A DNA stretch of 64,000 bases from Chitinophaga sp. (GCF_017745275.1 NZ_JAGHZS010000001.1:1353449-1417448), one strand, 5' to 3'; counted from the stretch's first letter, positions 368 to 26,129 are shown. Numbers and translations: made by a program. Notes: generated from the sequence alone by a model not told the origin.

Positions 368-428
368 TTAGCTTTTAGCAAAAATGCAGCGAAGAAGATA
401 TCTCCGCTGCATTTTTGCTAAAAGCTAA
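368..428. repeat. Long-hairpin element A (24-bp perfect stem, 13-nt loop) preceded by TAGC heptads; likely terminator
   Basis: Arm 368-391 is TTAGCTTTTAGCAAAAATGCAGCG and arm 405-428 is its exact reverse complement. TAGC recurs at 355, 362, 369 and 376 (period 7). The element lies between the stop of 434..3052 and the start of 1..274. Confidence 0.85.
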
Positions 429-433
429 CTGCT

Positions 434-3052
434 CTAAAGTTTATTATTCTTCATTTGTGTATCCGCTACCGGCACCTTCACGGTAGTGGTTCTGCTGCTG
501 CGTCCGCGGGGACTGAATACTTTCAGTTTCACCACTTTTCCACCAGCGGCTACCGGTGTAGTGTATAACGGGCTTTTCAGCGTAGGTTCTTCACCGTTAG
601 TAGTATAACGGATCTGTAAACCGGGCATCTGCACGTTGGCGTTAAACACACCATTTTCCACAGCTACTCCAGCAGTTGGAATACGCCAGTTAAAGCCACC
701 TCCGTAGTAATCCAGCCGGGGCATTTCACGTTTACCCATTACGTTGCTGAATACGCTCCAGGCCTGGGCATACAATGCTTCTGCTTTGGCCGGATCCTTC
801 TCGGTAGCCCACGCCGGATCCTGTGCCCACGCCCGTTCCGACAGGCCCAGTAATTTCGGTAACATCATATATTCCATGCGGTCAGAGCTGGTCACCGTTT
901 CGCTCCATAACAAGCCTTGTATACCAGGAATATTGGAAGCACCGAAACCAGTGAGCCGATCTTTTCCTACAAACATGTCTTGTGTTACCGGGTTACCTTT
1001 ACCATCCACTTTTTGATTTTTGTAGTAGTCGAAAGGAATGAAATAAAATGGCTTATCCACATCTACGAAACCGCCCCAGTAATAGCCTGGTTCATCAAAA
1101 GATTTCATGTAAGCCATATCGAAATAGAAGTTGCTCACACCAGACAACACTACTTTGTAACCAGCGTTGGCCAGGCGATAAGATAAGTCTTCCTGTCCGC
1201 CACCGATCACATTATTCCATACATTCAACTGGAAGTTATCGTTCACGAAATCAGGATTCGGGATGCTCTGTGCTTCTCCGGCCAGCGACGTTTTACGCAT
1301 ACCGGCTTCTTCCCAGCCTGCAACGGTGAGGCCGCGGGCTTTCAGCAAGTCATTCACTTTGCGGTAGTAATAGTACCACAGATCATTCACACCGGTAATG
1401 GATTTGTCTTGCTGCATCAGTGCAATGCAGGCAGGTGATTTTTCAAACACGCCACCAGGCACTTCATCGCCACCCATATGCACCTGCGTGAGTGGTGCGC
1501 CTGCTTCTTTATACATGGCCTGTAATTCTTCCAGTACTTTATCCAGGAAACGATAAGTAGAAGGTAAAGCAACATTCATCACGTTGTCGCTCCAGGCTTG
1601 CACGGATTGGTATTCAGATTTATCCTGCAAATCGGTCAGTAAATATTCGGTAGCTTCCTGTTCTTTACCGGCTGCTTTCAGCCGATAGTAGCGGGATTCC
1701 ATTGATTTAACGGCAGCGCGTGCGTGACCGGGACTTTCAATTTCAGGCAGTACGCGTATATGCCTTGCCGTTGCATAGCGTAATATTTCGATAAAGTCGT
1801 TGCGGGAGAAATGACCGGTACCAGCGGTGTTGGTGGTATCGGGACCGGAGCCATAAGAAGGTGGTAATATATCTCTCCAGGTGGTACTATGTCCGCGTTT
1901 GGCACCTACTTGTGTCAACTCAGGCAGAGAAGGTATTTCCACGCGCCAGCCTTCATCATCGCTGAAGTGGAAGTGTAATACATTCAGCTTATATAACGCC
2001 ATCAGATCAAGGATACGCAACATATCCCGCTTGTTGTGGAAGTTGCGTGCCACATCGATCATGAAGGCACGATACCCAAAACGCGGTTCATCGGTTACTT
2101 CCACACCAGGGATGGTAACCGATTTCTGTACGGCAGACCAGGCGGCAGGTGCAATCAGTGTTTTCAGTGATTGAATGGCATAGAAAGCGCCGGCTTCAGA
2201 TCCTGCTTTAATAACAATGCCCTGGGGGCTTACTTTCAAGCTATATCCTTCGTTGTGTTTACCTGCAACGGAAGCATCATAGGTCAATGTAGCGGAGAGC
2301 GTGCCGGGAGTAGCGCGTTTACCCAATAACGCCTGCAGTTCTTCTTTCAGCACATCTGCGCTGGCAGACAACTGCGGATCGGCAGTAATGATGGGCAATG
2401 CATTCAGTACCAGGTTATTGCCGGTAGCGTTATAAGTTACCGGTGTAGGAAATACCAGTGGCAATTGCGAAGCTGGTATATCTTTTACAGCAGCATTCTG
2501 TTTAAATATATCCGTTGGGGTTACTACGGCGGTTTTGTCGCCGGGATAACGCATCAGTTGTTTGGCAGTAGTAGAAGGTCGGATACTATAATCTTTAATC
2601 AGCAGTCCTTTCTCCGGTTGGTTTTCCCAAACGATATATAAACCGGTAGGTGCATCTGTAAAGTTTACGGCCCAGGCGTCACCGGCAATCGCCAGTTTCA
2701 GTGAGTCACCGGGAGCAATACCATTGAAGCCTTCAGCAGGTACAAAACGGTACAGGTCACCGTTGATGTGTTCTACTTTCACGTGGCCGGGTAATTCAGT
2801 GGCAGCCACTGTTCTGATAAAGTTGAAATATAGCTGCCACCCTTTGGCAGGGAATGGCTTGTTGGCAGTATTCACCAGTGTAAAGGCCGACAGGAAGTTG
2901 TCCTTTCCCTGGTAGTGGTTTTCTACCACTTCCCAACTGGTTTTCAAACGGGCAACGTCGTAGGGAGTTTGTTGGGCCTGCACACCTGCTACGGTATTGA
3001 ATAACAGCAAACCAGTTGCTACCAGCTTACCAAGATAGTTGTATCTTTTCAT
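434..3052 (-). CDS. Beta-N-acetylhexosaminidase, glycoside hydrolase family 20 (secreted)
   Basis: 872 aa with an N-terminal signal peptide. It carries GH20 catalytic-domain motifs HFHFSDDEGWRVEIPSLPELT and VHMGGDEVP, and the length fits a multi-domain chitobiase-type enzyme. Confidence 0.9.
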   Translation of the reverse strand: MKRYNYLGKLVATGLLLFNTVAGVQAQQTPYDVARLKTSWEVVENHYQGKDNFLSAFTLVNTANKPFPAKGWQLYFNFIRTVAATELPGHVKVEHINGDLYRFVPAEGFNGIAPGDSLKLAIAGDAWAVNFTDAPTGLYIVWENQPEKGLLIKDYSIRPSTTAKQLMRYPGDKTAVVTPTDIFKQNAAVKDIPASQLPLVFPTPVTYNATGNNLVLNALPIITADPQLSASADVLKEELQALLGKRATPGTLSATLTYDASVAGKHNEGYSLKVSPQGIVIKAGSEAGAFYAIQSLKTLIAPAAWSAVQKSVTIPGVEVTDEPRFGYRAFMIDVARNFHNKRDMLRILDLMALYKLNVLHFHFSDDEGWRVEIPSLPELTQVGAKRGHSTTWRDILPPSYGSGPDTTNTAGTGHFSRNDFIEILRYATARHIRVLPEIESPGHARAAVKSMESRYYRLKAAGKEQEATEYLLTDLQDKSEYQSVQAWSDNVMNVALPSTYRFLDKVLEELQAMYKEAGAPLTQVHMGGDEVPGGVFEKSPACIALMQQDKSITGVNDLWYYYYRKVNDLLKARGLTVAGWEEAGMRKTSLAGEAQSIPNPDFVNDNFQLNVWNNVIGGGQEDLSYRLANAGYKVVLSGVSNFYFDMAYMKSFDEPGYYWGGFVDVDKPFYFIPFDYYKNQKVDGKGNPVTQDMFVGKDRLTGFGASNIPGIQGLLWSETVTSSDRMEYMMLPKLLGLSERAWAQDPAWATEKDPAKAEALYAQAWSVFSNVMGKREMPRLDYYGGGFNWRIPTAGVAVENGVFNANVQMPGLQIRYTTNGEEPTLKSPLYTTPVAAGGKVVKLKVFSPRGRSSRTTTVKVPVADTQMKNNKL

Positions 3053-3303
3053 GTTGTGGATTAATTAAAGAATTGGCTTAGGTTGAAAGATAATAAATAA
3101 ATTTAAAAACTAGCAGTTGATTCATTTGATATGCTGAATTTTGGGATGAGCGGAGAGATAGAAAATGTTTTGACGCAGATATATTTAACAAATTTATCTG
3201 ACCTGCGTTAAGTAGATTTATGGGAATGAAGAAAAACAGGTAAGGAAGTATTCAACTATCTCCCCTAACAGGGAGCATCAAAAAATTACAAAAATCAAAG
3301 TCC

Positions 3304-4884
3304 ATGGTTAAAGCATTTATCGGATTTTCAGTAGTGAGCCTGGCAGCGATCATTGTGCTCGGCTTATTTTTCCCCTGGGTGTATTGGCTGCTGATCCTGG
3401 TAGTACCTATTGTTATTATGGGTATACTGGATATGTTACAAACGAAACACGCCATTATCCGCAACTACCCCATTGTAGGCCGTGCGCGTTACTGGATGGA
3501 AGCATTGCGCCCCAAAATTTACCAGTATTTTGTAGAAAGTGATATAGATGGCAGCCCGATTAACCGGGTAGACCGCTCCACCATTTACCAGCGGGCCAAG
3601 CGTGAGCTGGACTCCCAGCCGTTTGGTACCCAGTTTAACGTGTATGCAGAAGGTTATGAGTGGATGGCACATTCCATTCAACCGCAGAATTTTGATAACC
3701 TGGAGAAGGATCCCCGGGTAGTTTTTGGTGGGAAAGACTGTAAACAGCCTTATTCTGCCAGCATTCTCAATGTAAGCGCCATGAGTTACGGTTCGCTGAG
3801 TTCCAACGCTGTGCAGGCTTTAAATGGTGGTGCTAAAATCGGGAACTTCGCCCATAACACCGGTGAAGGCGGTATCAGTGATTTTCACCTGAAGCAGGGC
3901 GGTGATATTATCTGGCAAATAGGCACCGGCTATTTTGGTTGCCGCACAGAAGATGGCAATTTCTCGGATAGTCTTTTTGCAGAAAAAACGGCTCTTCCAC
4001 AGATTAAAATGATAGAGCTGAAAATTTCACAGGGTGCTAAACCTGGCCATGGGGGGATATTACCGGCGGCTAAAAACACACCGGAAATTGCAGCTATCCG
4101 TCATGTGAAACCACATACTACCGTGTTCTCTCCTCCTTATCATAAGGCGTTTGGTAGTCCGCGGGAAATGATGTTGTTTATTCAGCGTTTGCGTGATCTC
4201 AGCAATGGCAAACCCGTAGGCTTCAAACTATGTATAGGCCAGCCACGGGAATTTTACGCCATTTGTAAAGCGATGGTAGAAACGAACATCTTCCCTGATT
4301 TTATCACCGTAGATGGTGGAGAAGGCGGTACTGGTGCCGCACCACCGGAATTCTCCAATTCCGTGGGGATGCCACTGATGGATGGACTCTCCTTTGTGCA
4401 TGATACCCTCACTGGTTTCAATATCCGTCATCATATGAAGCTCATTGCTTCCGGCAAAATCCTCACCGGCTATCATATACTCCGGGCAATGGCGCTGGGC
4501 GCCGATACCTGCAATAGTGCACGCGCCATGATGATGGCACTGGGCTGTATACAGGCATTGGTATGTAACACCAACAAATGTCCTACCGGTGTTGCTACGC
4601 AAGACAAATGGCTGTCGGCAGGTCTGGTAGTAGATGATAAAAAACATCGTGTAGCCAATTATCACCGCGACACGATAGAAAGCGCCATAGAACTCGCTGG
4701 TGCCGCAGGCTTACAGAAACCACACGACATTACCCGCCGGCATATTTTCCGCCGTGTATTTATGAATACCGTAAAAACTTTTGAAGACATTTACCCCAGT
4801 ACCCTACCTGGCGCTTTGCTCAATGGTCAGATGCCGGAACAACTGAAAAAAGAAATGGATACAGTGGGGATAGATAACTGGTAA
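3304..4884 (+). CDS. FMN-binding glutamate synthase family protein (GltB domain-2-like), N-terminal membrane anchor
   Basis: 526 aa with two N-terminal hydrophobic helices. It has the ELKISQGAKPGHGGILP and VDGGEGGTGAAP motifs characteristic of the glutamate synthase FMN domain. Confidence 0.85.
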   Translation: MVKAFIGFSVVSLAAIIVLGLFFPWVYWLLILVVPIVIMGILDMLQTKHAIIRNYPIVGRARYWMEALRPKIYQYFVESDIDGSPINRVDRSTIYQRAKRELDSQPFGTQFNVYAEGYEWMAHSIQPQNFDNLEKDPRVVFGGKDCKQPYSASILNVSAMSYGSLSSNAVQALNGGAKIGNFAHNTGEGGISDFHLKQGGDIIWQIGTGYFGCRTEDGNFSDSLFAEKTALPQIKMIELKISQGAKPGHGGILPAAKNTPEIAAIRHVKPHTTVFSPPYHKAFGSPREMMLFIQRLRDLSNGKPVGFKLCIGQPREFYAICKAMVETNIFPDFITVDGGEGGTGAAPPEFSNSVGMPLMDGLSFVHDTLTGFNIRHHMKLIASGKILTGYHILRAMALGADTCNSARAMMMALGCIQALVCNTNKCPTGVATQDKWLSAGLVVDDKKHRVANYHRDTIESAIELAGAAGLQKPHDITRRHIFRRVFMNTVKTFEDIYPSTLPGALLNGQMPEQLKKEMDTVGIDNW

Positions 4885-4886
4885 AG

Positions 4887-5017
4887 AGCTGAAAGCATAA
4901 AGCTGAAAGCAAAAAGCCATTGAGGCGATTGATCGAAGCGGATTCATATTCGCGAAGATCAATCGCCTCAATGGCTTTTTGCTTTCAACTTGTTATTAGG
5001 CGCTTATGCTTTCGGCT
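4887..5017. repeat. Long-hairpin element B (core hairpin 4905-4986, 30-bp perfect arms) with AGCNNAA heptads
   Basis: Arm 4905-4934 is GAAAGCAAAAAGCCATTGAGGCGATTGATC and arm 4957-4986 is its exact reverse complement. AGC recurs at 4887, 4894, 4901, 4908 and 4915 (period 7), starting 3 nt after the TAA of 3304..4884. A partner word GCTTATGCTTTCGGCT at 5002-5017 lies inside the end of the convergent gene. Confidence 0.85.
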
Positions 5018-5762
5018 TATACAGCGCCAATGCATTTTCCCTGCATATCTTCGCTGCAATATCAGCAGGAAAACTATCCAGGATCAGTTGCAGGTCTGAA
5101 GCCGCAAATGGGCGTGGTGCACGGGTAGATGGCAAATCAGTACCAAACAATAATGCGCCGGCGTTAATAGCGCTGATCTGTCGCATGGCAGTGAGTACAT
5201 CAAAGTCGCAGCGACTGAAACCCGTTGCTTTTACCCTCGCGCCTTTTTCTACCAGCGGCAATAAATATTTGAATCCTGCTTTAGACAGTCCCAGGTGGTC
5301 GATGACTACAGCGGGGAGTTTATGCAAAGTGGTGGAGATTCCTGGCAGCTGCCGGGAATCCACATATAATTCCACATGCCATTTTACGAGGTCATATACA
5401 CGTAAGCCGAGCGTTTCCAGGTGCTTTACGCTTTCGGAGCCACCACGCTGTACATTAAAGCGCACGGCGCGTACGCCGGCATCGTGGAGGGCTATAATTT
5501 CTTCATCTGTTGTGCTGGCGGGGATCTGTGTAACGCCCACATAAGCGGGGCCTAATTGTTTCAGTGCTTCCAGCAAATACGATTGATCAAATCCCTGGAA
5601 AGAACCGGATACCACCGCTCCGCCTTGTACATTCAGTGTTTTCACCTGTTGCTGGTAATCTGCTACGGAAAAGTCGGCCGGTAAAAATCCCTCATTAGGT
5701 TGCAAGGGGAACCGGTGATCAATAATATGTAGGTGTGCATCAAATACGGGCTTATCAAACAT
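5004..5762 (-). CDS. Amidohydrolase family protein (amidohydrolase_2 / PDC-hydrolase-like)
   Basis: The N-terminus MFDKPVFDAHLHIIDHRFP carries the metal-binding HxH motif. The track ORF begins with GTG at 5789, and I prefer the ATG at 5760-5762. Confidence 0.7.
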   Translation of the reverse strand: MFDKPVFDAHLHIIDHRFPLQPNEGFLPADFSVADYQQQVKTLNVQGGAVVSGSFQGFDQSYLLEALKQLGPAYVGVTQIPASTTDEEIIALHDAGVRAVRFNVQRGGSESVKHLETLGLRVYDLVKWHVELYVDSRQLPGISTTLHKLPAVVIDHLGLSKAGFKYLLPLVEKGARVKATGFSRCDFDVLTAMRQISAINAGALLFGTDLPSTRAPRPFAASDLQLILDSFPADIAAKICRENALALYKPKA

Positions 5763-5816
5763 AATCTCATCGTTGTTGTTACAGTACACAAGCTACTGAA
5801 AATAGCTGAAAAAGGA

Positions 5817-5942
5817 GAGCAGAAAGCAGAAGGTATAAAGCAAAAAACCACCGAAGCGGAGACATAAGCGACAAAATTTAACTTTATTCGCTCGAATCTC
5901 CGCTTCGGTGTTTTTTTGCTTTATGCCTTCTGCTTTCTGCTC
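5817..5942. repeat. Long-hairpin element C (46-nt arms with 2 mismatches, 34-nt loop); likely terminator of the gnd-zwf-pgl operon
   Basis: Arm 5817-5862 is GAGCAGAAAGCAGAAGGTATAAAGCAAAAAACCACCGAAGCGGAGA, and arm 5897-5942 is its reverse complement apart from 2 positions. AGC recurs at 5818, 5825 and 5839 in phase 7. The element starts 5 nt below the pgl stop at 5947. Confidence 0.85.
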
Positions 5943-5946
5943 CTGG

Positions 5947-6672
5947 TTATATTTCCATCGCGCCGGCTGCTGCTTCATCCACAAACCAGTGTAATTCACC
6001 TTCTTCTGGTCTGATCAGTTGAGAAGGGAACTTTTCGGCATCAAAGGTACCTTCAATGACATTTTTCAGGGTGATCGCTTTGTTAGCGCCGGTGGTGAGA
6101 AATAATACGCAGGCAGCCCGGTTGACTACAGGAGCTGTTAAGGTAATGCGATACATATTCTGTGCTTCCAGGAAGAAAGCCTTTACCCAGGCCTTTTGCT
6201 CGTGTACTACGGCTGTACCGGGAAACAGGGACAGGGTATGTCCATCATCTCCCATACCTAATAATACCAGGTCAAAGGTGGTATCTTCTTTCCCAAAATA
6301 TGATTTCAGTATTTTTTCATATTCTTCAGCGGATGCTTCCGGTCCAATATCGGTACGCATTACGTGGATATTTTCCGGATTTACCCCTACTTTATCCAGC
6401 AGTTCGAGGTAAGCCATGCGGGCGTTGTTCCGTTCATCATCAAACGGTACATCTCTTTCATCTCCCCAGAAAAAATGGATTTTCTCCCATGGAATCACCA
6501 TGTTATAGGGCGCTTTTGCCAGCAGGCTATATAATTGCTTAGGCGTATTGCCTCCGGATAATACGAACGTAAAACGCTCCTGTGTTTGTAATACTTCGAG
6601 GATGTAGTTGCTGATCCATGCAGCTACGTTTTCACTCAGTTGCGCAGGATCTTTGGCGATATGTAGTTCCAT
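5947..6672 (-). CDS. pgl: 6-phosphogluconolactonase
   Basis: 241 aa with the SGGNTP and GMGDDGHTLSLFPG motifs of the Pgl/NagB superfamily. It lies directly downstream of zwf. Confidence 0.9.
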   Translation of the reverse strand: MELHIAKDPAQLSENVAAWISNYILEVLQTQERFTFVLSGGNTPKQLYSLLAKAPYNMVIPWEKIHFFWGDERDVPFDDERNNARMAYLELLDKVGVNPENIHVMRTDIGPEASAEEYEKILKSYFGKEDTTFDLVLLGMGDDGHTLSLFPGTAVVHEQKAWVKAFFLEAQNMYRITLTAPVVNRAACVLFLTTGANKAITLKNVIEGTFDAEKFPSQLIRPEEGELHWFVDEAAAGAMEI

Positions 6673-6682
6673 AAGAAGAATG

Positions 6683-6795
6683 GAATTACGAATTACGAAT
6701 TACGAATTACGGATTTGTGGGTAGATAGTAAACGCGAATATTCCTGCTACAATCTCCACACAAATCCGTAATTCGTAATTCGTAATTCGTAATTC
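6683..6795. repeat. Long-hairpin element D: arms of 4 x GAATTAC heptads plus GGATTTGTG, ~36-nt loop, between zwf and pgl
   Basis: The left arm 6683-6719 has GAATTAC at 6683, 6690, 6697 and 6704. The right arm 6756-6795 is its reverse complement. The right arm ends at 6795 and the zwf stop codon occupies 6796-6798. The left arm begins 11 nt past the pgl ATG at 6672. Confidence 0.9.
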
Positions 6796-8301
6796 TTATT
6801 TAGTCGGTAAATTAATCCAGGTATGACCATCACGGGCTACGAGTGCATCTGCATCATCGGGGCCCCATGAATCCGGTGCATAGTTCGGGAAGTCCTGCGG
6901 GGTGCGGTTTTCCCATGTTTCCAGGATAGGCATGATTACTTTCCAGGCTGCATCTACCTGGTCGCCACGCATGAACAGGGTAGCATCACCTTCCATTACA
7001 TCCAGCAGCAATGTTTCATATGCTTCCGGTGCATGTTCGCCATTGGCGGCGTCGTAGTTGAAGGTCATATCTACCGGGTCCAGTGTCATGGTCTGGCCGG
7101 GGCGTTTTGCCTGGAAGCGGATCCTGATATCCATTTCCGGTTGAATGCTGATGGTGAGCCTGTTAGGGCGCCATGTTTGTGCAGCTTCTATCGGGAAGGA
7201 ATAAGGAGGTGCCTCCTTGAAGGTGATAATGATATTGGTAGCTTTCTGGTGCAGGTATTTTCCGGTACGTACATAGATCGGAACACCCTGCCAGCGCCAG
7301 TTATCGATATAAAATTTCACCGCAGCATAGGTATCGATGTTGGATTTGGGATCTACCCCTTTCTCCTGGCGATAACCTACTACCTGGCTGCCTTTCATCC
7401 ATCCGGCAGAGTATTGACCACGTACCGCATGTTCATGCACCTTATCAGGTGTAATGCGACGGATAGCGTTCAATACATCCACTTTCTTGTTACGCACTTC
7501 GTTGGCATCGAAAGATACGGGAGCTTCCATGGCGAGGATGCACATGATCTGCAGGATATGGTTCTGTACCATATCACGCAGGGCGCCTGCTCTTTCGTAG
7601 TAACCGCCCCTACCTTCCAGGCCCACGCTTTCAGCAGCAGTAATCTGGATATTATCGATGTAATTGCGGTTCCATACCGGTTCAAATAATGCGTTGGCAA
7701 AACGGAAAGCCAGGATATTCTGGATGGTTTCTTTACCGAGGTAGTGATCGATACGATAAATCTGTTCTTCCGTAAATTTCTTTGCCAGCAGCTCATTCAG
7801 TTCATGTGCGCTTTGCAGGTCATGACCAAATGGCTTTTCCACCACAATACGGGTGCAATGTTTATCGGAGCAGAGGTTCAGCTCACCCAGGCGGGTAGCG
7901 ATATTGGGAACCAGCTGCGGCGCAACTGCCAGGTAAAAAATAACGGTAGGATGTACGCCCCACTCAGCTTCTTTCTGTGTAACAAAATCAGTGATTTTGC
8001 TATAGGCAGCCGGATCTTCGGCGTCCATCTGCAGGTAAGAAACGTGGTTGCTGAAATCTTTCCAGTGACCATTCTGCTCTCCCTTCCGACGGGAAAATTT
8101 ACTGATCCCTTCCAACAGGTGGTTGTTATAATCTTCGTTGGAGTAAGGGCTGCGGCCCAGGCCAGCAATAGCAAACTGCTCGGGCATCCAGTCATCTAAA
8201 AACAGGTTATATAACGCAGGCGTTAGTTTCCGGTAGTTTAAATCGCCACTGCCTCCGAAAATAAAGAGAATGGAAGCAGGTGGGCGTTTATGGATCTGCA
8301 T
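6796..8301 (-). CDS. zwf: Glucose-6-phosphate dehydrogenase
   Basis: It has the NADP-binding [12 protein letters not shown] motif and the active-site signature RIDHYLGKE. The start was moved to the ATG at 8299-8301 ([10 protein letters not shown]...) because the track ORF extension to 8403 overlaps the end of gnd. Confidence 0.95.
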
Positions 8302-8326
8302 AAATTTAATTGAAGATGAACATTTT

Positions 8327-9886: not shown

Positions 9887-9923
9887 CTGTTTATCATTAT
9901 CTCCATGATATCAAAATGATGGA

Positions 9924-12503: not shown

Positions 12504-12640
12504 ACTAATTATCCGTTTATAGTGCTAAAGAAGAAGACTAAGCGGCCGTTAAATTAATAATTATTGCGGTAATTTTTAAATTTTTTGATTTTTGTTTGAC
12601 ATACATACAGAAAGTTTGAATATTATCAAATAAAACAACT

Positions 12641-12677
12641 TAAAAAAACAATCCCGGCCACTTCATGTGTGCCGGGA
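12641..12677 (-). terminator. Rho-independent terminator after the TonB-like gene
   Basis: On the minus strand the stem TCCCGGC...GCCGGGA (12652-12677) is followed by TTGTTTTTTTTA. Confidence 0.75.
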
Positions 12678-12789
12678 CTGGTATCAGGATTAGAATGCGC
12701 AGGTTAAATGGTAAGCCAAATGGATGCAGGCCGGATAAACAGGACAGACGAATTTGATGGGTGAAACAATTAATGATGGTTTGAGTTGA

Positions 12790-13626
12790 CTATTGGCCCA
12801 GTACGAACCGGATAGGCAGGTTAAAGAATACAGCTACATTTTGTCCGTTCTGACGACCGGGTTTCCACTTCGGCATGTTGCTTACCACACGTTTGGCTTC
12901 TTCTTCAAGACCACCACCTTTTGCAGCGCCTACGGTTTTTACATCTGTGATGCTGCCATCGCGGTTCACAACAAACTGGATGAAAACGGTACCTTGAATA
13001 TCATTTTCCTGTGCTACGTGGGGATATTTTATACTCTTATTGAGATATTTCCCCAATGCAACTTCTCCTCCGGGAAACTCCGGCATCATTTCTACAAAAG
13101 TAAGTGGGCCTGCATGATCGGCTGCTGGTGCGGCTTCCACTTGTATCACACCTGTACCGGGGCCTTTGGATAATTCTGCAGCAACGCCATCATCCGGGCC
13201 TTCTGCATTCTCTATACCAATGGCTTTGTTACCGATTTCATTCATCTTGGGAGGCAATGACTCTTCAGGCACTTCTCCTGCTACAATCTCTGGTTTCACA
13301 AAAGCAACAGTAGCTGCTACCGGTGGTGGCGCGCTCTGAACAGGCGGTGGTGGCGGAATTACCGGATCAGGATCTGGAATTTTAATGTCATCCAAGATGG
13401 CTACTGGTTTTACCAACACAGGCCGATGCACATTGTCCGCAGCCATTAATGTGTTGTTCAATACATAGCCGCCAATCATTACCAACACAATAGAAGCGGT
13501 ACCTACTATGGCGTTACGAACACGTTTGTCGTAGCGGCTGCGGAGCTCATAAGCTCCGTAATCTTTATTCCTTCCGTCGAAGAGAATGTCGAGGAATTCA
13601 TTCCCCGGGATCTTAGTTGAGTCCAT
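12790..13626 (-). CDS. Energy transducer TonB family protein
   Basis: It has an N-terminal anchor helix, a Pro-rich spacer PDPDPVIPPPPPVQSAPPP and a C-terminal TonB domain (YPHVAQENDIQGTVFIQFVVNRDGSITDVK). The start was moved to the ATG at 13624-13626 (MDSTKIPGNEF...). The ATG at 13671 is an alternative. Confidence 0.85.
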   Translation of the reverse strand: MDSTKIPGNEFLDILFDGRNKDYGAYELRSRYDKRVRNAIVGTASIVLVMIGGYVLNNTLMAADNVHRPVLVKPVAILDDIKIPDPDPVIPPPPPVQSAPPPVAATVAFVKPEIVAGEVPEESLPPKMNEIGNKAIGIENAEGPDDGVAAELSKGPGTGVIQVEAAPAADHAGPLTFVEMMPEFPGGEVALGKYLNKSIKYPHVAQENDIQGTVFIQFVVNRDGSITDVKTVGAAKGGGLEEEAKRVVSNMPKWKPGRQNGQNVAVFFNLPIRFVLGQ

Positions 13627-13778
13627 GGTAATTTGTTTTTTAATTAGATGTGCGGCAGAAATATTTTCCATACGGTTATTGAAAATATTTTTTCCCGGAG
13701 ATGGGGAGCGCTGTGAGGCTACAGGATAGCGCGATCGCGGATGCGGGTATATAATAATGATATAACCCTGGCGGTTAT

Positions 13779-13812
13779 ATAAAAATAGAAGTCCCGACGG
13801 TTGTCGGGACTT
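13779..13812 (-). terminator. Terminator-like hairpin in the ORF-poor region upstream of the TonB gene
   Basis: The hairpin AAGTCCCGAC-GGTT-GTCGGGACTT is followed on the minus strand by CTATTTTTAT. No confident gene lies upstream of it. Confidence 0.5.
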
Positions 13813-14681
13813 GCTGGCACTGGGGACCTTACCTGGAAACAAGTGGCTCCTTTTATTCAATCAGGCTTTCCGAAAAAGGTATAGTCGTACACGTTATATG
13901 TAGTCACCACTTCCGGATAATATCTTCATGTAATGGTTGGTAAGTGGCGATGAATGTGTTTACATGCTTCAGTTTTTCGGGGCAGTTACCAACAAATCCC
14001 ACCAGAATTGTTTGAGGCAACGCCCCTTTGAACTGAAGTCGATCGTTTAATTTCATTGGATAGTAACAAGTCTTGTTTGGCTGCGCACACAAAACGTGTA
14101 TGCGTCAACGTTATATTATATCTATTAATGGTTGGTAAAAATTAAATAGCATTGTTTTCATATTAAACTGAGTAAGGTAACAACGAAGGTGTTAGTTTTA
14201 AATGCCAGGAGGATGCGGGTAAGTATGTTGCGGATAATTTACCACCAATAAATTTTTGCAATATACTGTCCCCGCACGCCACACCAGGCATTCTATTTAC
14301 AGCTTACAGAACGCAAGATCTTTCATCAACAACTGCAACACGCAGCCGTTTGTATGTAACGGGAACAGGTGATATTCTCCACGAATTGATGCGTGTGGGA
14401 ACGCATTCCACTTGTCAGCGTGTGCCTTTTCATAGTGTATTTTTATTTACACGTTTTTTATAATGATGGCTGCAACACCTTGCTGGTGGATCAAAGGATG
14501 CCGGAAGCGTTTTGCCGATTGCTTCCCTTATCGTAGCAGACGATATTAGTCTACTGAATTGGTAGACAAATATAGGATGGGGTTTTATTAATTCCAAATT
14601 ATTGAAAGACTTTTTTGTTATTTTTCTTTCACCGCAGGGGTGGCTGTGATGGAGACTACAACAAAAGCGTATTTTTGCGCC

Positions 14682-15512
14682 ATGAAAGAGCATTTGAAAA
14701 ATATTTTACTCATTGTGGCCGGTGCCCTCATCTTCGCAGTAGGCATCAACTACCTGGCTATCCCTAACAAATTATCTGAAGGGGGCGTAATTGGTATTAC
14801 CATCGTGACTTATTACTACTGGGGGTGGTCACCCGGTATCACCAACCTGGTTATTAACGCCGTCCTTATTGTTACCGGCTATAAGCTGCTGGACAAACGA
14901 GGGATGCTGTATACCCTGCTGGGCATCTTCTTTTGCTCACTATTCCTCTACCTTACCGAAAAGCCCCTGATCCCGGTTACCAGTAACCCTTTGCTGGCAG
15001 CTATCTTCGCCGGATTACTGGTAGGTATCGGCATCGGGCTGGTATTCCTTTCCGGTGGTACTACCGGCGGTTCCGCCATTGTGGCCCGCCTGTTCAATAA
15101 ATACCTGGGATGGAGCCTGGGCAACGCCATGCTCATTTTTGATATTGTAGTAATACTGGCATCTTCCTTTATCATTGGTATAGAAAAAACCATGTACACC
15201 TTTATTGCGGTATACATCGGCGCCAGAACGGTAGACTATATCGTAGATGGTTTGAACACCAAGCGTGCCATCACCATCATCACCAATCACACTGACGCCA
15301 TCGCGAAGAAAATACTGGACGACATGAAACGCGGTGCTACCGTATTGCATGGACACGGTGCCTATACAAAATCTCCCAAAGAAGTGCTGTATGTGATCAT
15401 CGGTAAACAGGAGCTGATGCGCCTGAAAGCTTTGGTACAGGAAACAGATCCTGAAGCTTTTTTCGTGATACACGAAGTACATGAAGTATTTGGCAGGGGC
15501 TTCTCCAAATAA
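14682..15512 (+). CDS. YitT family membrane protein (DUF2179-type C-terminus)
   Basis: It has multiple TM helices, a GINYLAIPNKLSEGGVIG motif and a soluble C-terminal domain. The track ORF starts with GTG at 14640. In-frame ATGs lie at 14649 and 14682, so the start is uncertain. Confidence 0.75.
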   Translation: MKEHLKNILLIVAGALIFAVGINYLAIPNKLSEGGVIGITIVTYYYWGWSPGITNLVINAVLIVTGYKLLDKRGMLYTLLGIFFCSLFLYLTEKPLIPVTSNPLLAAIFAGLLVGIGIGLVFLSGGTTGGSAIVARLFNKYLGWSLGNAMLIFDIVVILASSFIIGIEKTMYTFIAVYIGARTVDYIVDGLNTKRAITIITNHTDAIAKKILDDMKRGATVLHGHGAYTKSPKEVLYVIIGKQELMRLKALVQETDPEAFFVIHEVHEVFGRGFSK

Positions 15513-15519
15513 AATTGCC

Positions 15520-15552
15520 GCTTTCGGACCGCGGCTATCGCGGTCCGAAAGC
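15520..15552. terminator. Bidirectional hairpin between convergent genes (14-bp stem)
   Basis: The hairpin is GCTTTCGGACCGCG-GCTAT-CGCGGTCCGAAAGC. The stop codon and last 5 codons of the minus-strand gene lie in the loop and right arm. Confidence 0.6.
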
Positions 15553-16608
15553 CTGCGTCCCTGTTAACGCCCGTATTAACTTTACCTCCGCTGCATTATA
15601 CGGCGTTCCATCTTTCCGGAAAATATCATGGTACCAAAGTGCAGGCTCACTTCCATCCGTCACCGGCATACCCTGCGCATACATCGTATTGGTTTTACCA
15701 GCCACCAATCCCCAGCTATAGGCGCCAATATTTTCCTGCTGCAACAACGGCATAATATTATCGAAACGGCTTCCCAGGGTGCGCGCCATATATTCTGTAC
15801 AAAGCAACGGACGATTAAATGGGCGCAACTGCTGAATATCCTGCCGGTGCATATCCGGCGGCAGATAGTTGTGATACGTAATGATGTCGGAATGTGCTAC
15901 CCCATACTCACTCAGCTCCTCTAAATCCGGGTTCCAGACACCTACGGTTAAAGGCTGTGAAGGCTTTGCTGCCCGGCTCCAGCGAAACACGTCCTCCAGC
16001 AGGGACATACTTCTGTTGCCAGCTCCAAAGCTGCCTGGCTCATTATAAAGGTCCCAAAACACGACACGTGGATCTTTACCAAAGGTTTGGAGTATATCTT
16101 TTACATATCTCTCCAAAGTATCCTTCAACGCAGGATGATCAAAGATGGCGCTTCCGGGATCCTGCACCCAGCGCGAATTGTGCACACCTGGGATGGGTGG
16201 TGGCTGCGGACCTGCCGTATATACATTGTTCCAGCAGTCGTCGAAGAATACGAATGCAGTAGAGAGATGGTGGTGTGCAGCAATCCCCAGGTAAGTATCG
16301 ATACGCCGTTTAAAGCCATGCGCATCTTCCACCCAGGGAACATGATGCAGGTATACCCGCATAGAATTGAGGCCAATCCCTTCGGCATATCCCAGTTCCC
16401 GATCGATAGTAGCAGAGTCGAAAGTAGCGGCCTGCCACATTTCCAGTTGGTTTACTGCGGTGCTGGGAATAAAATTACATCCGCGGAGCCAGCCTTTGCC
16501 GGCATACCATTGCTGTGCTTTTTCGATGGGCCAGGTATCAGCAGGAGCTTGTTTACAGGCAGTTACCAGGAGGGTTATCCCACATACTGCCATTAATTTG
16601 TTGAGCAT
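15535..16608 (-). CDS. Clan GH-A glycoside hydrolase (GH5-like cellulase/xylanase-family), lipoprotein
   Basis: FWDLYNEPG provides the acid/base NEP motif and LLCTEYM the nucleophile TE motif. The start was moved to the ATG at 16606-16608 (MLNKLMAVCGITLLVTAC, a lipobox). Confidence 0.7.
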   Translation of the reverse strand: MLNKLMAVCGITLLVTACKQAPADTWPIEKAQQWYAGKGWLRGCNFIPSTAVNQLEMWQAATFDSATIDRELGYAEGIGLNSMRVYLHHVPWVEDAHGFKRRIDTYLGIAAHHHLSTAFVFFDDCWNNVYTAGPQPPPIPGVHNSRWVQDPGSAIFDHPALKDTLERYVKDILQTFGKDPRVVFWDLYNEPGSFGAGNRSMSLLEDVFRWSRAAKPSQPLTVGVWNPDLEELSEYGVAHSDIITYHNYLPPDMHRQDIQQLRPFNRPLLCTEYMARTLGSRFDNIMPLLQQENIGAYSWGLVAGKTNTMYAQGMPVTDGSEPALWYHDIFRKDGTPYNAAEVKLIRALTGTQAFGPR

Positions 16609-16790
16609 AGGGGCAAGGATTAAGGGGTATCTAAAAATAATCAATTTTGAGATCTCCCGCAGGGATTTGTGATCCCCATATCTTTTTCTTCGACATTTCA
16701 TATTTGGTTTTTGAATTTTAGATGTATATATTGTAGTCGCTCAACGCTCTTTTCATTCCTTACCGTCTTATCAACCATAATTAAAGGGAA

Positions 16791-17912
16791 ATGACACAAA
16801 GCTCTCAACGCTTTTTACCGCTGGATGTATTCCGCGGCATGACCGTTTGTTTCATGATCATAGTGAACACAGGCGGTACAGGTGGAACATACTGGCCACT
16901 CGATCATGCCGCCTGGCATGGATGGACGCCCACCGACCTTGTATTTCCTTCGTTTCTTTTTGCTGTTGGCAATGCTATGAGCTTCAGCATGAGAAAATAT
17001 GAACAACTGGGAAATTCAGCGGTGCTCGGAAAGATTTTCAAGCGCACCCTGATTATTTTCCTCCTGGGCTACCTGATGTACTGGTTCCCGTTTTTTGAAC
17101 AAACCGATCATGGCATCGTGTTCAAACCATTTAGTGAAACCCGCGTACTGGGCGTATTACAACGTATCGCTCTTTGTTATGGTATAGCTTCGCTGTTAAT
17201 CCATTACTGCTCTAAAAAAGTGGTATGGGGTGTCAGTGCCCTGTTTCTGCTGGGCTACTGGGCTATCCTATGGTATTGCGGTACACCGGGTGATCAATAC
17301 AGCATGACCGGCAACGCCGGCATCTTCCTCGATAAAGCGATACTGGGCGAAGGCCATATGTACCACGGCGAAGGCATTGCGTTTGATCCGGAAGGTATAC
17401 TCAGTACCATTCCCGCAGTAGTAAACGTAGTAGCCGGTTACTATGCTGGTTTATTTATACAGCAACAAGGCAGAACCAAACAAGGCCTCATGCGCATGGT
17501 GATGGTAGGTATTGTGCTTTTTGCACTGGCTTATGCCTGGAATACCGTATTCCCTATCAACAAAAAACTGTGGACCAGCTCTTATGTGCTGCTGACCATT
17601 AGCATAGACCTGTTCCTCTTATCACTGCTCATCTTTATCATTGATATCGCCGGATTTACCAAAGGCACCGGATTTTTTACCGTATTCGGAAAAAACCCAC
17701 TATTCCTTTACCTGTTGTCGGAGATCCTGGCTATCATATTCTGGACCGCACATGTAGGAGGCGACTCTTTGTATAAGTGGATCAACGATACTATTTTTCA
17801 GCCGCTGTCGCCGGGCAAGTTCGGGTCACTGTTATTCTCGCTGGCATTCATGCTTACCTGCTGGCTGGTAGGATACATTTTGGATAAACGTAAAATTTAC
17901 GTGCGGGTATAG
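16791..17912 (+). CDS. Heparan-alpha-glucosaminide N-acetyltransferase-like membrane acyltransferase (DUF5009/DUF1624 type)
   Basis: 373 aa and polytopic. The N-terminus RFLPLDVFRGMTVCFMIIVN is typical of this family. Confidence 0.75.
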   Translation: MTQSSQRFLPLDVFRGMTVCFMIIVNTGGTGGTYWPLDHAAWHGWTPTDLVFPSFLFAVGNAMSFSMRKYEQLGNSAVLGKIFKRTLIIFLLGYLMYWFPFFEQTDHGIVFKPFSETRVLGVLQRIALCYGIASLLIHYCSKKVVWGVSALFLLGYWAILWYCGTPGDQYSMTGNAGIFLDKAILGEGHMYHGEGIAFDPEGILSTIPAVVNVVAGYYAGLFIQQQGRTKQGLMRMVMVGIVLFALAYAWNTVFPINKKLWTSSYVLLTISIDLFLLSLLIFIIDIAGFTKGTGFFTVFGKNPLFLYLLSEILAIIFWTAHVGGDSLYKWINDTIFQPLSPGKFGSLLFSLAFMLTCWLVGYILDKRKIYVRV

Positions 17913-18050
17913 GAAGAGCAGAAAGCGGAAAGCAGAAAGCAAAAAGCTATTAAAGCGAACCACCAAAGCGGATAAGTAATTTAAATACTCGCTTTGGTGG
18001 TTCGCTTTAATAGCTTTTTGCTTTCTGCTTTCCGCTTTCTGCTTTTTCCT
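17911..18050. repeat. Long-hairpin element E (~60-nt arms with one indel, 19-nt loop) with AGCNNAA heptads
   Basis: Arms are 17911-17970 and 17990-18050. AGC recurs at 17917, 17924, 17931, 17938 and 17945 (period 7). The element begins inside the TAG stop (17910-17912) of the upstream gene and ends 24 nt before the next ATG. Confidence 0.9.
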
Positions 18051-18073
18051 ATATTGTAACCAAAACAAATCCA

Positions 18074-18859
18074 ATGGACCTCTCACTGAATGGAAAAACA
18101 GCCCTGGTATGTGGCAGCTCACAGGGAATAGGATTAGCTACAGCAGAAGAACTGGCATTATTGGGCGCCACCTGCATTTTGTTGGCCAGGAATGAAGATC
18201 GTCTGAAAAGCGTGCTCCCTGGCCTGAGTACAAACCAGGGACAACAACACCGGTATGTAGTGGCTGATTTTTCGGAAGTGGCGCAGGTAACTGCGGTGGC
18301 GACGGGTATTGCAGCACAGGGTCCTGTGCATATCCTGGTCAACAATACCGGCGGACCCGCTGCCGGCCCTATTTTATCTGCCGATGCTACTGCATTCACT
18401 GACGCGTTTTCGCAGCACCTGCTCTGTAACCAGGCATTGGCACAAGCCCTGGTGCCAGGCATGATCGCCGCAGGTTTTGGTCGCATTATCAATATTATTT
18501 CTACTTCTGTAAAAACGCCGCTTAAAAACCTGGGGGTATCTAATACTACCCGCTGGGCAGTAGCTGCATGGTCTAAAACGCTGGCTACAGAGCTGGCCCC
18601 ACATGGTATTACGGTCAATAATGTATTGCCGGGATCAACCAGTACGGCGCGGTTGGAAGGCTTATTCCGCAGTAGTGCGGCTGCCAGGAATGTGTCGCCG
18701 GAAGTAGTGGCGGCCGAGTGGCTGAAAGAAATACCCATGCAGCGTTTCGGGGAAGCCCGGGAGATAGCTGCCCTGGCCGCTTTCCTCGCTTCGCCTGCCG
18801 CCGCTTATATTACCGGCACCAGCACTGCAGTAGATGGTGGGAAAACACCCGTGATGTAA
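18074..18859 (+). CDS. SDR family oxidoreductase (FabG-like, atypical catalytic residues)
   Basis: 261 aa with GSSQGIG and NNTG motifs. By eye, the canonical YxxxK position reads S-N-T-T-R. Confidence 0.85.
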   Translation: MDLSLNGKTALVCGSSQGIGLATAEELALLGATCILLARNEDRLKSVLPGLSTNQGQQHRYVVADFSEVAQVTAVATGIAAQGPVHILVNNTGGPAAGPILSADATAFTDAFSQHLLCNQALAQALVPGMIAAGFGRIINIISTSVKTPLKNLGVSNTTRWAVAAWSKTLATELAPHGITVNNVLPGSTSTARLEGLFRSSAAARNVSPEVVAAEWLKEIPMQRFGEAREIAALAAFLASPAAAYITGTSTAVDGGKTPVM

Positions 18860-18984
18860 TTTGTTGTAACTAAAAAGCCGGTAGCACCCAACGGTACTAC
18901 CGGCTAATTCAGATAGTTATCTCTCGTATAAATATTTCGTATACCCGTTACTGTTATCACAAACATGTATACCTGTTGTCATCC

Positions 18985-19611
18985 TCAGCAGGGATTAAAA
19001 TTCACTACACGTACCAGTTTCCCGTTTTCGAAATACAACTGTACACTACTGTCGCTTTCCATACTATAGGAATCGCGGAGCGTGATCATATCTGTTTTCC
19101 CTTCATTTTCTGCCTGCAATGCGGCATTAGGGAAAAGTTTGCTCACCTCTTCCCAGGTAGTGTTTCCGGTGAGCGTTATTTTGCCCAGTTTGAGTTCATT
19201 GTCCGGAGAGAATACAAATTCCTCGCAGGCAACAGAATCTTTACAAAGCTCGAAGGTGGAACCTTTAATATAAAAATAGCTAAAGTCGTCGTCAAACTGT
19301 GATCCGCAGATATCTTCATTAGCAGTAGAAATAATGCTGTCTGCCGCTGCGATGCTGCTTTCCAGGCGCTGCCGGTTGGTAAACAACGGTACTTTGCCAT
19401 TGATCAGTGCTTTCGAAAATTCAAACACTTCCACTTTATCCCAGGAAATGTTATGACGGCGGTGCGGCTCCTGCATAGAGTCATCTGCGGCAGTGAGGGG
19501 CTGAATGGTGGTAGCTGCGGCTGCTACTGCCAGCGTATCTGGTTCTTCCTGTTTTGGCTGATGGCAGGCAGCCAACGTAATTACTGTTAGCAATAAAACT
19601 ATTCTATTCAT
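18985..19611 (-). CDS. Hypothetical lipoprotein
   Basis: 208 aa with a signal peptide and lipobox (LLTVITLAAC). No recognisable domain. Confidence 0.55.
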   Translation of the reverse strand: MNRIVLLLTVITLAACHQPKQEEPDTLAVAAAATTIQPLTAADDSMQEPHRRHNISWDKVEVFEFSKALINGKVPLFTNRQRLESSIAAADSIISTANEDICGSQFDDDFSYFYIKGSTFELCKDSVACEEFVFSPDNELKLGKITLTGNTTWEEVSKLFPNAALQAENEGKTDMITLRDSYSMESDSSVQLYFENGKLVRVVNFNPC

Positions 19612-19725
19612 GATCGTTACTTCTTCTCAGGCCAATAACGTTGGTAATTCATAGGCCGGTAAACTAAAACTATCCTTCTTAAACACATAATTAAAATAAA
19701 TTATATTAATAGCCAAGTTATTTTT

Positions 19726-19741
19726 ATGCAATCGTTTGCAT
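19726..19741. promoter_or_regulatory. LacI-family-operator-like palindrome upstream of the GH88/105 gene
   Basis: ATGCAATCGTTTGCAT lies 50 nt upstream of the ATG at 19791. It matches the TGCAAnCGnTTGCA style of LacI/CcpA-type operators. Confidence 0.3.
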
Positions 19742-19790
19742 TAATCGGCAAAGCGCATTATATTGTTAGTATAAAACCCACGTATTATTT

Positions 19791-21023
19791 ATGAAAAAGC
19801 TACAATTCCTGTTATACCTGGGATTGGCCATCCCCCTCACCGGCCGTACCCAGGACAATTCCGCTGATCTGGCGGTAGTAAAAAAAGTAGCCGACTACGC
19901 CATTGCACATGCGGCCTTTCAATTCAAAGGAGACAACCAGCAAACCTGGAACACCAGTAAAGAAATTCCTGCCGGCACCAATGCGCTCATCTCCGACCAC
20001 CTGAGCGAATGGCATTATCCAAACGGCGTACTCAACATTGCCATGGTGGACCTGGGCAACTACCTCAAAGATGATAAATACAACGCCTTCGCGCAAAGGC
20101 ATGTAGCGTTTGCCTTCGACAACTACGCATACTTCGAAGCCCTCAGCAAAAAAGGTGTTAAGTATAAGAACTTCCCGTTTAATCAACTTATTAACACCCG
20201 GGTACTGGACGACTGCGGCGCCATGGGAGCCAGCCTGCTGGATGTATACAATACCGTAAAAAGAAACGATTACAGGGCTTATATCGACAAAGCGGCACAT
20301 CATATCAGTAAGGTGCAGGAACGACTGCCAGACGGGACCCTATGCCGCCCCAATCCCTATAAATGGACCCTATGGGGAGATGATCTTTACATGAGCGTTC
20401 CCTTTCTCGCCCGGATGGGAAAGCTGACCAACAACAATAACTATTTTGATGATGCCGTAGCACAGGTGCAACATTTCACATACTATCTCTGGGATCCCCG
20501 TACAGAACTATATGTTCACTATTATTACCAGGATCTGCAAAAACAGGGCGTAGCTCACTGGGGACGCGCCAACGGCTGGATCATGCTCGCCAAAGTACAA
20601 CTGCTGAACTTTCTGCCCGCCAACCATCCTGGCAGACAAAAAGTAATCGACGATCTCACACAACAAATTCTCGGCGTAGCAAAGTACCAGGGCGCTAATG
20701 GCCTGTTTCACCAGGTATTGGATCGCACCGACTCGTATACAGAAACATCCTGCACCGCCATGTTTGTTTACTCCATTGCCAGAGCCGTTAATGAAGGCTG
20801 GCTCGACAAACGTTATATCACCATTGCCGAACGCGGATGGGAAGGACTGGTAAAGGAAAAAATACAGGAAGATGGACAACTGAAAGATGTATGCATTGGC
20901 ACCAATACTTCTGCCGATCTTTCTTTCTATTACAATCGTCCCACGGAGTTAAACGACTTTCACGGCATAGGACCCGTTATAGAAGCAGGTCTGGAGATTA
21001 TACGGTATAGAGCAAAGAAGTAA
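19791..21023 (+). CDS. Glycosyl hydrolase family 88/105 (unsaturated rhamnogalacturonyl/glucuronyl hydrolase-like)
   Basis: 410 aa with a signal peptide. It has the WGDDLYMSVPFLARMG and WGRANGW motifs typical of YteR/UGL-like enzymes. Confidence 0.8.
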   Translation: MKKLQFLLYLGLAIPLTGRTQDNSADLAVVKKVADYAIAHAAFQFKGDNQQTWNTSKEIPAGTNALISDHLSEWHYPNGVLNIAMVDLGNYLKDDKYNAFAQRHVAFAFDNYAYFEALSKKGVKYKNFPFNQLINTRVLDDCGAMGASLLDVYNTVKRNDYRAYIDKAAHHISKVQERLPDGTLCRPNPYKWTLWGDDLYMSVPFLARMGKLTNNNNYFDDAVAQVQHFTYYLWDPRTELYVHYYYQDLQKQGVAHWGRANGWIMLAKVQLLNFLPANHPGRQKVIDDLTQQILGVAKYQGANGLFHQVLDRTDSYTETSCTAMFVYSIARAVNEGWLDKRYITIAERGWEGLVKEKIQEDGQLKDVCIGTNTSADLSFYYNRPTELNDFHGIGPVIEAGLEIIRYRAKK

Positions 21024-21030
21024 TCGGTAG

Positions 21031-21149
21031 AGCCGAAAGCATAAAGCATAAAGCTATTGAAGCGATTGATAAAAGCAAATGAGTAATTCAATACTCGCTT
21101 TTATCAATCGCTTCAATAGCTTTATGCTTTATGCTTTATGCTTTCTGCT
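21031..21149. repeat. Long-hairpin element F (arms 21031-21076 and 21097-21149, 20-nt loop) with AGCATAA heptads
   Basis: The left arm has 4 heptads (AGC at 21031, 21038, 21045, 21052) and the right arm has 5. Its last base overlaps the SusD-like stop codon (21149-21151). It lies between convergent genes. Confidence 0.9.
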
Positions 21150-26104: not shown

Positions 26105-26129
26105 AAAGACAAAAGATCGCGACCATACG

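Follow-up and report, generated by a model that had tools for sequence, protein, structure and literature searches.

Long intergenic hairpins with mirrored heptanucleotide arms at gene ends in Chitinophaga

The closest described systems are repeats and palindromes of bacterial intergenic DNA. Cyanobacterial STRR sequences are made of units such as CCCCAGT, TTGGTCA and CAACAGT. REP, BIME and REPIN sequences lie after genes and inside operons, where they are thought to stabilise the upstream mRNA or to terminate transcription. The Correia/NEMIS, ERIC and RUP miniature inverted-repeat transposable elements (MITEs) are intergenic foldback repeats of 100-200 nucleotides (nt) that can be co-transcribed. 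Here we describe six long hairpins with 7-nt periodic arms in 64,000 nt of DNA from a soil Chitinophaga sp. (NZ_JAGHZS010000001.1:1353449-1417448). This whole stretch is called the window below, and positions are counted from its first letter.

The STRR sequences of filamentous cyanobacteria usually have 7-bp repeats and form intergenic hairpins, for example at hupS/hupL, and roles in transcript stability, translational coupling and termination have been put forward for them (PMC2670836). For dispersed extragenic palindromes, the model system is that of the REPINs (PMC3116915). In most bacterial genomes, long simple repeats are most often heptanucleotide repeats, and the rationale proposed for slippage is that 7 nt is the length contacted by DNA polymerase (Mrazek 2007, as summarised in PMC4679880 and PMC4692102). 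Inverted GGGAATC arrays with stem-loop potential, described there as occasional, occur in Xanthomonas (PMC4692102, PMC4679880). Template switching at quasipalindromes creates, perfects and maintains hairpins (PMC7202029, PMC8794818). An earlier note on this DNA had recognised five of the six hairpins and knew of no named family of this design in Bacteroidota. In the literature we likewise found no description of a heptad-hairpin family for Chitinophaga or other Bacteroidota, but the design itself has a precedent in the STRR hairpins (PMC2670836). Our preferred reading, to which we assign a probability of roughly 0.55, is that the elements are REP-like dispersed palindromes at terminator positions, the bases of which have grown by heptad slippage and have been mirrored through template switching.

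Anatomy and symmetry of the hairpins

The six elements are listed here with their gene context, taken from an open reading frame map and Pfam annotation.

Element A: 349-433, minus strand, 3' of a GH20 gene (434-3052, minus)
Element B: 4887-5017, no strand assigned, between a convergent GltS-like gene (3304-4884, plus) and an amidohydrolase gene (5004-5789, minus)
Element C: 5817-5942, minus strand, 3' of pgl (5947-6672, minus)
Element D: 6683-6795, minus strand, filling the zwf-pgl gap and starting at the zwf stop codon
Element E: 17908-18053, plus strand, 3' of a DUF5009 acyltransferase gene (16791-17912, plus)
Element F: 21031-21149, no strand assigned, between a convergent GH88 gene (19791-21023, plus) and a SusD-like gene (21149-22585, minus)

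Each copy is built in three layers, a hypervariable centre, a conserved inner arm (consensus AAAGCTATTGAAGCGAATGAT) and outer arms of 7-nt tandem repeats. The AGC-type heptads read AAAGCNN on the 5' arm and NNGCTTT on the 3' arm, and directly after the inner palindrome stands TTTTTGC or TTTTTTTGC in B, C and E, and TTTATGC in F. Element B carries five AGCNNAA heptads on its left arm (AGC at 4887, 4894, 4901, 4908 and 4915), the inner arm AAAAAGCCATTGAGGCGATTGATC and a 13-nt insertion in its right arm. In element C, which has AGC-type heptads and arms of 63 nt with 86% complementarity, the inner arm is ACCACCGAAGCGGAGA, a module common to C and E. Element E has five mirrored heptads on each arm (AGC at 17917...17945) and arms of 66 nt that are 92% complementary; its inner arm is AAAGCTATTAAAGCGAACCACCAAAGCG, followed by TTTTTGC on the 3' side, and the TAG stop codon of the DUF5009 gene is part of the stem base. 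Element F, with AGC at 21031...21052 and the inner arm AAAGCTATTGAAGCGATTGATAAAAGC, has four heptads on one arm and five on the other, and its loop resembles that of E; both features had been pointed out in the earlier note.

Elements A and D do not fit cleanly into a pattern of stem-loop followed by U-tract. The heptads of A are AGCNNTT, five on the left arm (AGC at 349, 356, 363, 370 and 377) versus three on the right (GCT at 417, 424 and 431). An inverted-repeat search placed its arms at 363-395 and 401-433 (91% complementary), around a terminator-like inner core, AGCAAAAATGCAGCG...CGCTGCATTTTTGCT. The arms of D are (GAATTAC)x4.7 ... (GTAATTC)x4.7. The earlier description of a five-element family with AGCNNAA outer arms was correct for A, B, C, E and F as to coordinates and AGC phase, which we confirmed by reading the sequence, and generally as to the heptad; it did not list D, and the unit of A is a different one.

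The hairpins are real and not a chance observation. The phased pattern AGCNNAAAGCNNAAAGC occurs 14 times in the window versus 0.01 expected from shuffles, and Tandem Repeats Finder returned period-7 arrays on both arms of all six elements. Over the scanned periods of 4-12, 7 was the sole period passing the self-match threshold in the window. It was also the sole recurrent tandem period in 103 kb of related loci not selected for heptads, where it appeared as inverted pairs, beside one lone period-11 array. By inverted-repeat search the arms of the elements are 33-66 nt long and 86-96% complementary. Two of the checks proposed earlier were folding and a comparison with Rfam. All six elements fold far better than shuffled controls, with RNA folds of -52 to -112 kcal/mol and z = -10.9 to -21.2 (A -10.9, B -16.5, C -15.5, D -14.5, E -21.2, F -15.0) and DNA folds of z = -10.1 to -19.0, and Rfam gave no match to the elements at the gathering threshold. 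Below that threshold, models of eukaryotic miRNA precursors were the only ones to match, with MIR8643 (57.7 bits; gathering 135) and mir-3119 (34; gathering 80) on both strands in the intervals 17915-18045 and 360-438. Homology to eukaryotic miRNA precursors was considered and rejected, since such scores are generic long-hairpin matches.

When the 5' arm was aligned to the reverse complement of the 3' arm, the variants at the NN positions turned out to be mirrored, order included. In one copy (locus L142), for example, NN reads AT, CG, AT, AA on both arms. Overall, NN was identical between the arms in 24 of 34 heptad layers, versus 21% between different elements. The two arms had equal numbers of heptads in 5 of 16 elements and numbers differing by one in another 7, and pairing was poorest in the outer heptads. 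Independent slippage in each arm would not give this order of variant units, so that either templated copying between the arms or strong selection for pairing is needed.

Position after genes and change at orthologous sites

All six elements start 0-20 nt past a stop codon. Globally, among 52 long intergenic palindromes from the window and the Chitinophaga loci, 44 lie in co-directional or convergent gaps versus 2 in divergent gaps, and those with a visible upstream gene nearly always start within about 20 nt of its stop codon. Because of this position, and because plain terminators occupy orthologous sites, the heptad hairpins may well serve in transcription termination and/or protection of mRNA 3' ends. 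The earlier note had set related copies against independent terminators; the exclusion of terminators does not stand, given the placement of all copies and the plain terminators in orthologous gaps.

Synteny around pgl and the DUF5009 gene is kept in eight relatives (loci L123, L126, L128, L188, L190, L191, L192 and L193). The 6PGL of the host is 92% identical to that of C. polysaccharea (L126) and 91% to that of C. niastensis (L128). Nearly every orthologous 3' gap holds a hairpin, and it is the type that changes, between a plain terminator of A-tract, stem and U-tract, a heptad hairpin and a giant nested palindrome. The sites compare as follows.

E site: window, five heptads per arm; C. eiseniae (L190), an orthologous E-type element with the same loop AAGCGAATTTTAAATACTCGC and two heptads per arm; L188 and C. 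ginsengisegetis (L191), plain terminators, the latter reading ACAAAAGCAAGGGAAGGC-TCAAT-GCCTTCCCTTTGCTTTT
D site: window, four heptads per arm; C. polysaccharea, a hairpin of 14 bp that contains a single GTTACGG/CCGTAAT unit; L192, a 5-nt loop between arms of exactly three heptads each; L123, L128 and L193, four heptads with differing centres of 16-45 nt
C site: window, AGC-type; L123 and L193, AGC-type with an E-type inner arm; C. niastensis, a D-type element, with an inner arm matching D of the window; L126, nothing long; L192 (3817-3876), a solo 3'-arm remnant, GCTTTCTGCTTTC, directly after the pgl stop codon
B site: window, AGC-type; L126, a plain terminator, TATAAAAGCAAAATCCCC...GGGGATTTTGCTTTTATAA; L123, L128 and L192, giant palindromes
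F site: window, AGC-type; L188, a giant palindrome; L190, a 44-bp GC-rich hairpin; L191, a plain terminator

Heptad number thus shifts in place and on both arms, being 5 versus 2 at the E site (C. eiseniae) and 1, 3 or 4 at the D site, where the variant units are mirrored as well (GAATGGC/GCCATTC, GAATTAT/ATAATTC). The slippage-type change that the earlier note had read from the unequal arms of F is borne out, since heptad number differs by whole units between arms and between orthologues. Close relatives carry different hairpins or, in L192, a solo arm in these gaps instead of empty sites, and comparison of four orthologous gaps gave no direct target-site duplication at the element junctions. 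The remnant in L192 indicates loss through internal deletion and not through clean excision.

Two features of the neighbouring genes were also noted. Beside the YitT gene, C. polysaccharea (L126 294-1344) and C. eiseniae (L190 6644-7676) have a cold-shock-domain gene and two genes of the RRM_1 type, whose place is taken in the window by a cellulase-like gene (15535-16701). These genes are pointers to candidate RNA-binding proteins and nothing further. Element B overlaps both convergent gene ends (window 4885-5017 compared with L123, L192 and L126). The last two codons of the amidohydrolase gene are encoded within the outer right heptads, and its product ends in ...YKPKA* in the window versus ...YKP* in 97% identical strains, the extra codons lying inside a heptad; the GltS-like protein ends in ...DNW* versus ...DNWG*. 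With both neighbouring C-termini altered by element B, turnover of intergenic palindromes rewrites C-terminal codons.

Copies of the family were found well beyond these gaps. A scan of species genomes for four phased AGCNNAA units gave at least 120 loci, as a sample across phyla. Among the matches listed, phased arrays were present in many phyla and about one in ten was of the hairpin type, in Chitinophaga, Ferruginibacter, Puia, other Bacteroidota, Gemmatimonadaceae, Desulfohalobiaceae, Chloroflexi and Omnitrophota. The inverted partner of the A-rich array, again among the matches listed, was downstream in 12 loci and upstream in 1. This arrangement is identical on both strands, so that a transcript from either will be A-rich in its 5' arm and U-rich in its 3' arm. 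The hairpin-type matches in other phyla are mostly alike in their placement after gene ends. A complete metagenome scan for AAAGCNNAAAGCTATTNNAGCG gave 59 stretches, of which about 25 were true hairpins, 16 of them at loci of one assembly (Ga0207426, contigs of 16-534 kb) that match the strict inner-arm pattern. The inner arm was also found in L116, L123, L131, L139, L174 and L190; in L116 (Chitinophaga sp. RAB17) an E-like element sits at a non-orthologous site. The arm consensus is (AAAGCNN)n AAAGCTATTGAAGCGAATGAT, then the variable centre, and AAAGC is conserved across heptad copies with NN free. Their sequences show that these elements are akin and make up a single dispersed family. The kinship claimed in the earlier note is upheld by the same inner arm at non-orthologous Chitinophaga loci and at those 16 sites of one assembly, and the heptad phase holds in the further copies. 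Overall, the earlier observation is confirmed and its interpretation partly supported.

Other units occur in the same architecture. In the Chitinophaga loci, hairpin arms are also built of AGCNNTT heptads (like A), GAATTAC heptads (like D), GATTTAC and GGTCNAT. Hairpins with AAAGCNN or GTAAAGC heptad arms and like polarity, mostly adjoining gene 3' ends, were seen in distant phyla, at L104 1716-1845 (Gemmatimonadaceae), L115 2668-2805 (Chloroflexi), L048 2187-2343 (Desulfohalobiaceae) and L075 3252-3352 (Omnitrophota). The heptad-hairpin architecture as such seems to have originated repeatedly rather than in one mobile lineage.

All six heptad hairpins of the window lie in its first 21 kb (349-21149). 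In the remaining 43 kb (21150-64000), which include 14 3'-end gaps of 60 nt or more, there is no heptad hairpin; short ordinary terminator-like hairpins are found there, together with one different long palindrome. C. niastensis has one gene flanked by two GAATTAC elements. The clustering suggests local spread through gene conversion or short-range copying. Logan short-read contigs of the same strain end at or within about 30 nt of elements E and D (L001, end 7001; L002, end 2719; L194, start), as would be expected when de Bruijn assembly meets perfect palindromes longer than k.

The different palindrome belongs to a second family.

GATT-type palindrome: 25955-26125, core 25968-26112 (145 nt), minus strand, termini TTGTCTGTGGCAGGATGATACTGAT, 3' of a gene at 26130-26516 (minus)

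In the window a degenerate inner arm of the E type, AAAGCGAATA ... AGATCGCG, stands on its two sides. Its relatives have termini TTGTCTTnnCCAGGATTAGACTGAT and stems of 100-170 bp (L123, L128, L163, L169, L184, L188 and L192). In several loci (L151, L169, L184, L144, L163 and L123) the GATT-type palindrome is nested exactly within E-type arms, as ...AAAGCTATTGAAGCGAAT | TTTGTCTTGCCCAGGATTAGACTGAT ... | ATTCGCTTCAATAGCTTT..., and it is also nested at the apex of GC-rich hairpins (GAGCGCCTTCGGCGCT|TGTCTTTGG...). It resembles a MITE whose target is the hairpin centre. The nesting and the hypervariable centres mark the hairpin apex as the place where sequence is inserted, deleted or replaced, and the base of the hairpin is older, growing by heptads.

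Mechanism and competing explanations

From the anatomy, the family kinship, the position after stop codons, the polarity and the mirrored change of copy number in place, all of them observed here, we infer a mechanism of slippage and template switching. The AGC-type heptad would be a tandem duplicate of the base, AAAAGC/GCTTTT, on which the stem of an ordinary bidirectional intrinsic terminator stands, and such a duplication would give both the A-first polarity and the UUUUUGC (or UUUAUGC) after the inner palindrome. Replication slippage, which favours 7-nt units in bacteria, would gain or lose heptads, and template switching within the hairpin (quasipalindrome correction) would copy each change onto the other arm. 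The centre of the palindrome would be deleted or replaced repeatedly, and the inner arm may be passed between loci by copying, via recombination or mobilisation. The heptad extension itself is probably for the most part a mutational by-product.

Several findings weigh against this reading. The stems, at 28-72 bp, are far longer than those of canonical terminators, and a generic promoter and terminator scan did not flag the heptad hairpins, which its loop and stem limits exclude. Element D sits within the zwf-pgl operon, an awkward spot for a strong terminator. In the D-type heptads (GUAAUUC) and the outer heptads of the A type, the 3' arm is not U-rich, so that the idea of a U-tract module fails to cover all types. 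Mismatches in the sense orientation of the heptad types comprise 36 G.U versus 21 A.C (p = 0.06), no clear sign of selection at the RNA level, and in the GATT-type giants the trend is reversed. Finally, L192, with a 6PGL 97% identical, has lost the hairpin after pgl, and the hairpin is dispensable at that site.

The main rival, possible though clearly less probable than the reading above, fits most of the same evidence: the hairpins would be terminator-targeting selfish elements, that is, non-autonomous mobile palindromes (REPIN- or MITE-like) that insert preferentially into terminator hairpins and owe their movement to a transposase acting in trans and recognising hairpins, whether RAYT/IS200-like or of another kind. 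Termination would then be incidental, and the heptads would be by-products of insertion or of replication through the hairpin. Such mobility would account for the finding of one conserved inner arm of 21 nt at numerous non-orthologous sites, both inside a single genome and in different species, and for the D-type inner arm GGAnTTGTGGGTAGATA, which stands in the zwf-pgl gap here and in the pgl-amidohydrolase gap in C. niastensis. It agrees too with the exchange of whole intergenic hairpins between 97% identical strains, with the clustering of the six window copies within 21 kb and with the GATT-type nesting at the apex of E-type arms, an insertion into hairpin centres. But none of the junctions examined has a direct target-site duplication, and the annotated flanks hold no transposase, although no protein search aimed at RAYT was made; on these two counts the MITE reading entertained in the earlier note found no support. 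A regular-expression search of all six frames found no HUH motif in the window. Loops vary among copies, unlike those of MITE bursts, the loss in L192 left a solo arm remnant and not a clean empty site, and part of the stem-base sequence recurs in the orthologous short hairpin and in the stop-codon context (D compared with L126), which points to growth in place.

Other alternatives give the repeats a function of their own. We consider it doubtful that the mirrored arrays are a selected tunable device, either a protein platform with 7-nt steps or a multi-register terminator, or that the palindromes are built layer by layer by a dedicated hairpin-specific enzyme. If the multi-register idea is true, each GCUUUNN unit is a new release site; in a tunable device, heptad number would set termination strength or make termination conditional. 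Slightly less credible still is the specific proposal that the arms are phased docking arrays for a single-strand-binding protein reading 7-nt steps, for example one with a cold-shock domain (CSD). Bound to either the U-rich 3' arm or the A-rich 5' arm, such a protein would melt the hairpin or block it, and in this way adjust termination or mRNA stability to conditions. As summarised in PMC4679880, B. subtilis CspB binds heptamer repeats with one protein on each heptamer, favouring T-rich units, TTCTTTT among them. The 3' arms here read GCUUUCU GCUUUUU, AAAGC is conserved with free NN as for a spaced recognition motif, and the A-first polarity is kept across phyla among the matches listed. A single sequence-specific reader, however, cannot explain several unrelated heptads (GAATTAC, GATTTAC, GGTCNAT and AGCNNTT) in one architecture; moreover, the arms are predicted to be fully base-paired, and no CSD or RRM gene was found in the window by regular expression in six frames. 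Least probable to us is a role at the DNA level only, with the hairpins as cruciform or hairpin sites for chromosome organisation or replication, like the binding of gyrase and IHF by BIMEs. DNA folds as exceptional as the RNA folds, the lack of a significant G.U bias and the breaking of assemblies by perfect palindromes are in its favour, but a transcript-linked role better explains how closely the hairpins follow stop codons, how seldom they lie in divergent gaps and why they have an A-rich 5'/U-rich 3' polarity, and copies are gained and lost between close strains. We also considered CRISPR, retron, integron attC, riboswitch or attenuator, and phase variation, and rejected them on account of the 3'-end position, the syntenic housekeeping flanks and the lack of spacers and of associated genes.

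Comparison with known systems

If growth by slippage and mirroring by template switching is the correct reading, Chitinophaga and scattered other phyla offer a natural terminator series in which the same gene junctions carry anywhere from 0 to 5 mirrored heptads. Three questions would become testable with it: the reason for the predominance of 7-nt units among bacterial tandem repeats, the way in which long perfect hairpins arise and stay symmetric (template switching versus selection), and the function of the STRR-type heptamer hairpins. On the practical side, such palindromes systematically fragment short-read assemblies at gene ends and can rewrite the last codons of their neighbours.

Like bidirectional intrinsic (Rho-independent) terminators, the elements stand directly after stop codons or between convergent genes and, A and D apart, seem to have their inner palindrome between GCAAAAA and UUUUUGC (UUUAUGC in F), where A-tract would pair with U-tract. 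Unlike them, they have AT-rich, periodic stems of 28-72 bp versus about 5-15 bp, with sequence common to several loci. The likeness to the Correia/NEMIS, ERIC and RUP elements is that of foldback repeats in intergenic DNA; the hairpins differ from such MITEs in having neither target-site duplication nor fixed length nor conserved loop, and in changing heptad number in place. With the Xanthomonas GGGAATC and Beggiatoaceae TAACTGA repeats they share a 7-nt unit, an intergenic location and a copy number that varies between relatives. Those repeats, however, are mostly one-sided direct arrays, often upstream of starts, whereas the present arrays are mirrored pairs after stop codons.

Two systems come closest. 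The REP, BIME and REPIN sequences of Proteobacteria are likewise palindromes scattered outside genes, mosaic in organisation and conserved in arm sequence, from which the Chitinophaga elements are set apart by heptanucleotide arm arrays, much longer hairpins and a variable centre, with no RAYT seen in the annotated flanks. The STRR sequences, like the present elements, are intergenic hairpins of tandem 7-bp repeats, often near the 3' end of the upstream gene and variable among close relatives. This likeness is one of architecture only, since the phylum is another, the repeat units are others (here AAAGCNN, AGCNNTT and GAATTAC) and there is no sequence homology. To the STRR design the present elements add a dispersed, conserved and non-repetitive inner arm, the A-rich 5'/U-rich 3' polarity of the AGC type and nesting with a second palindrome family. 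What is new here is the presence in Bacteroidota of heptamer-repeat, REP-like hairpins that combine a conserved inner arm with mirrored expansion in place.

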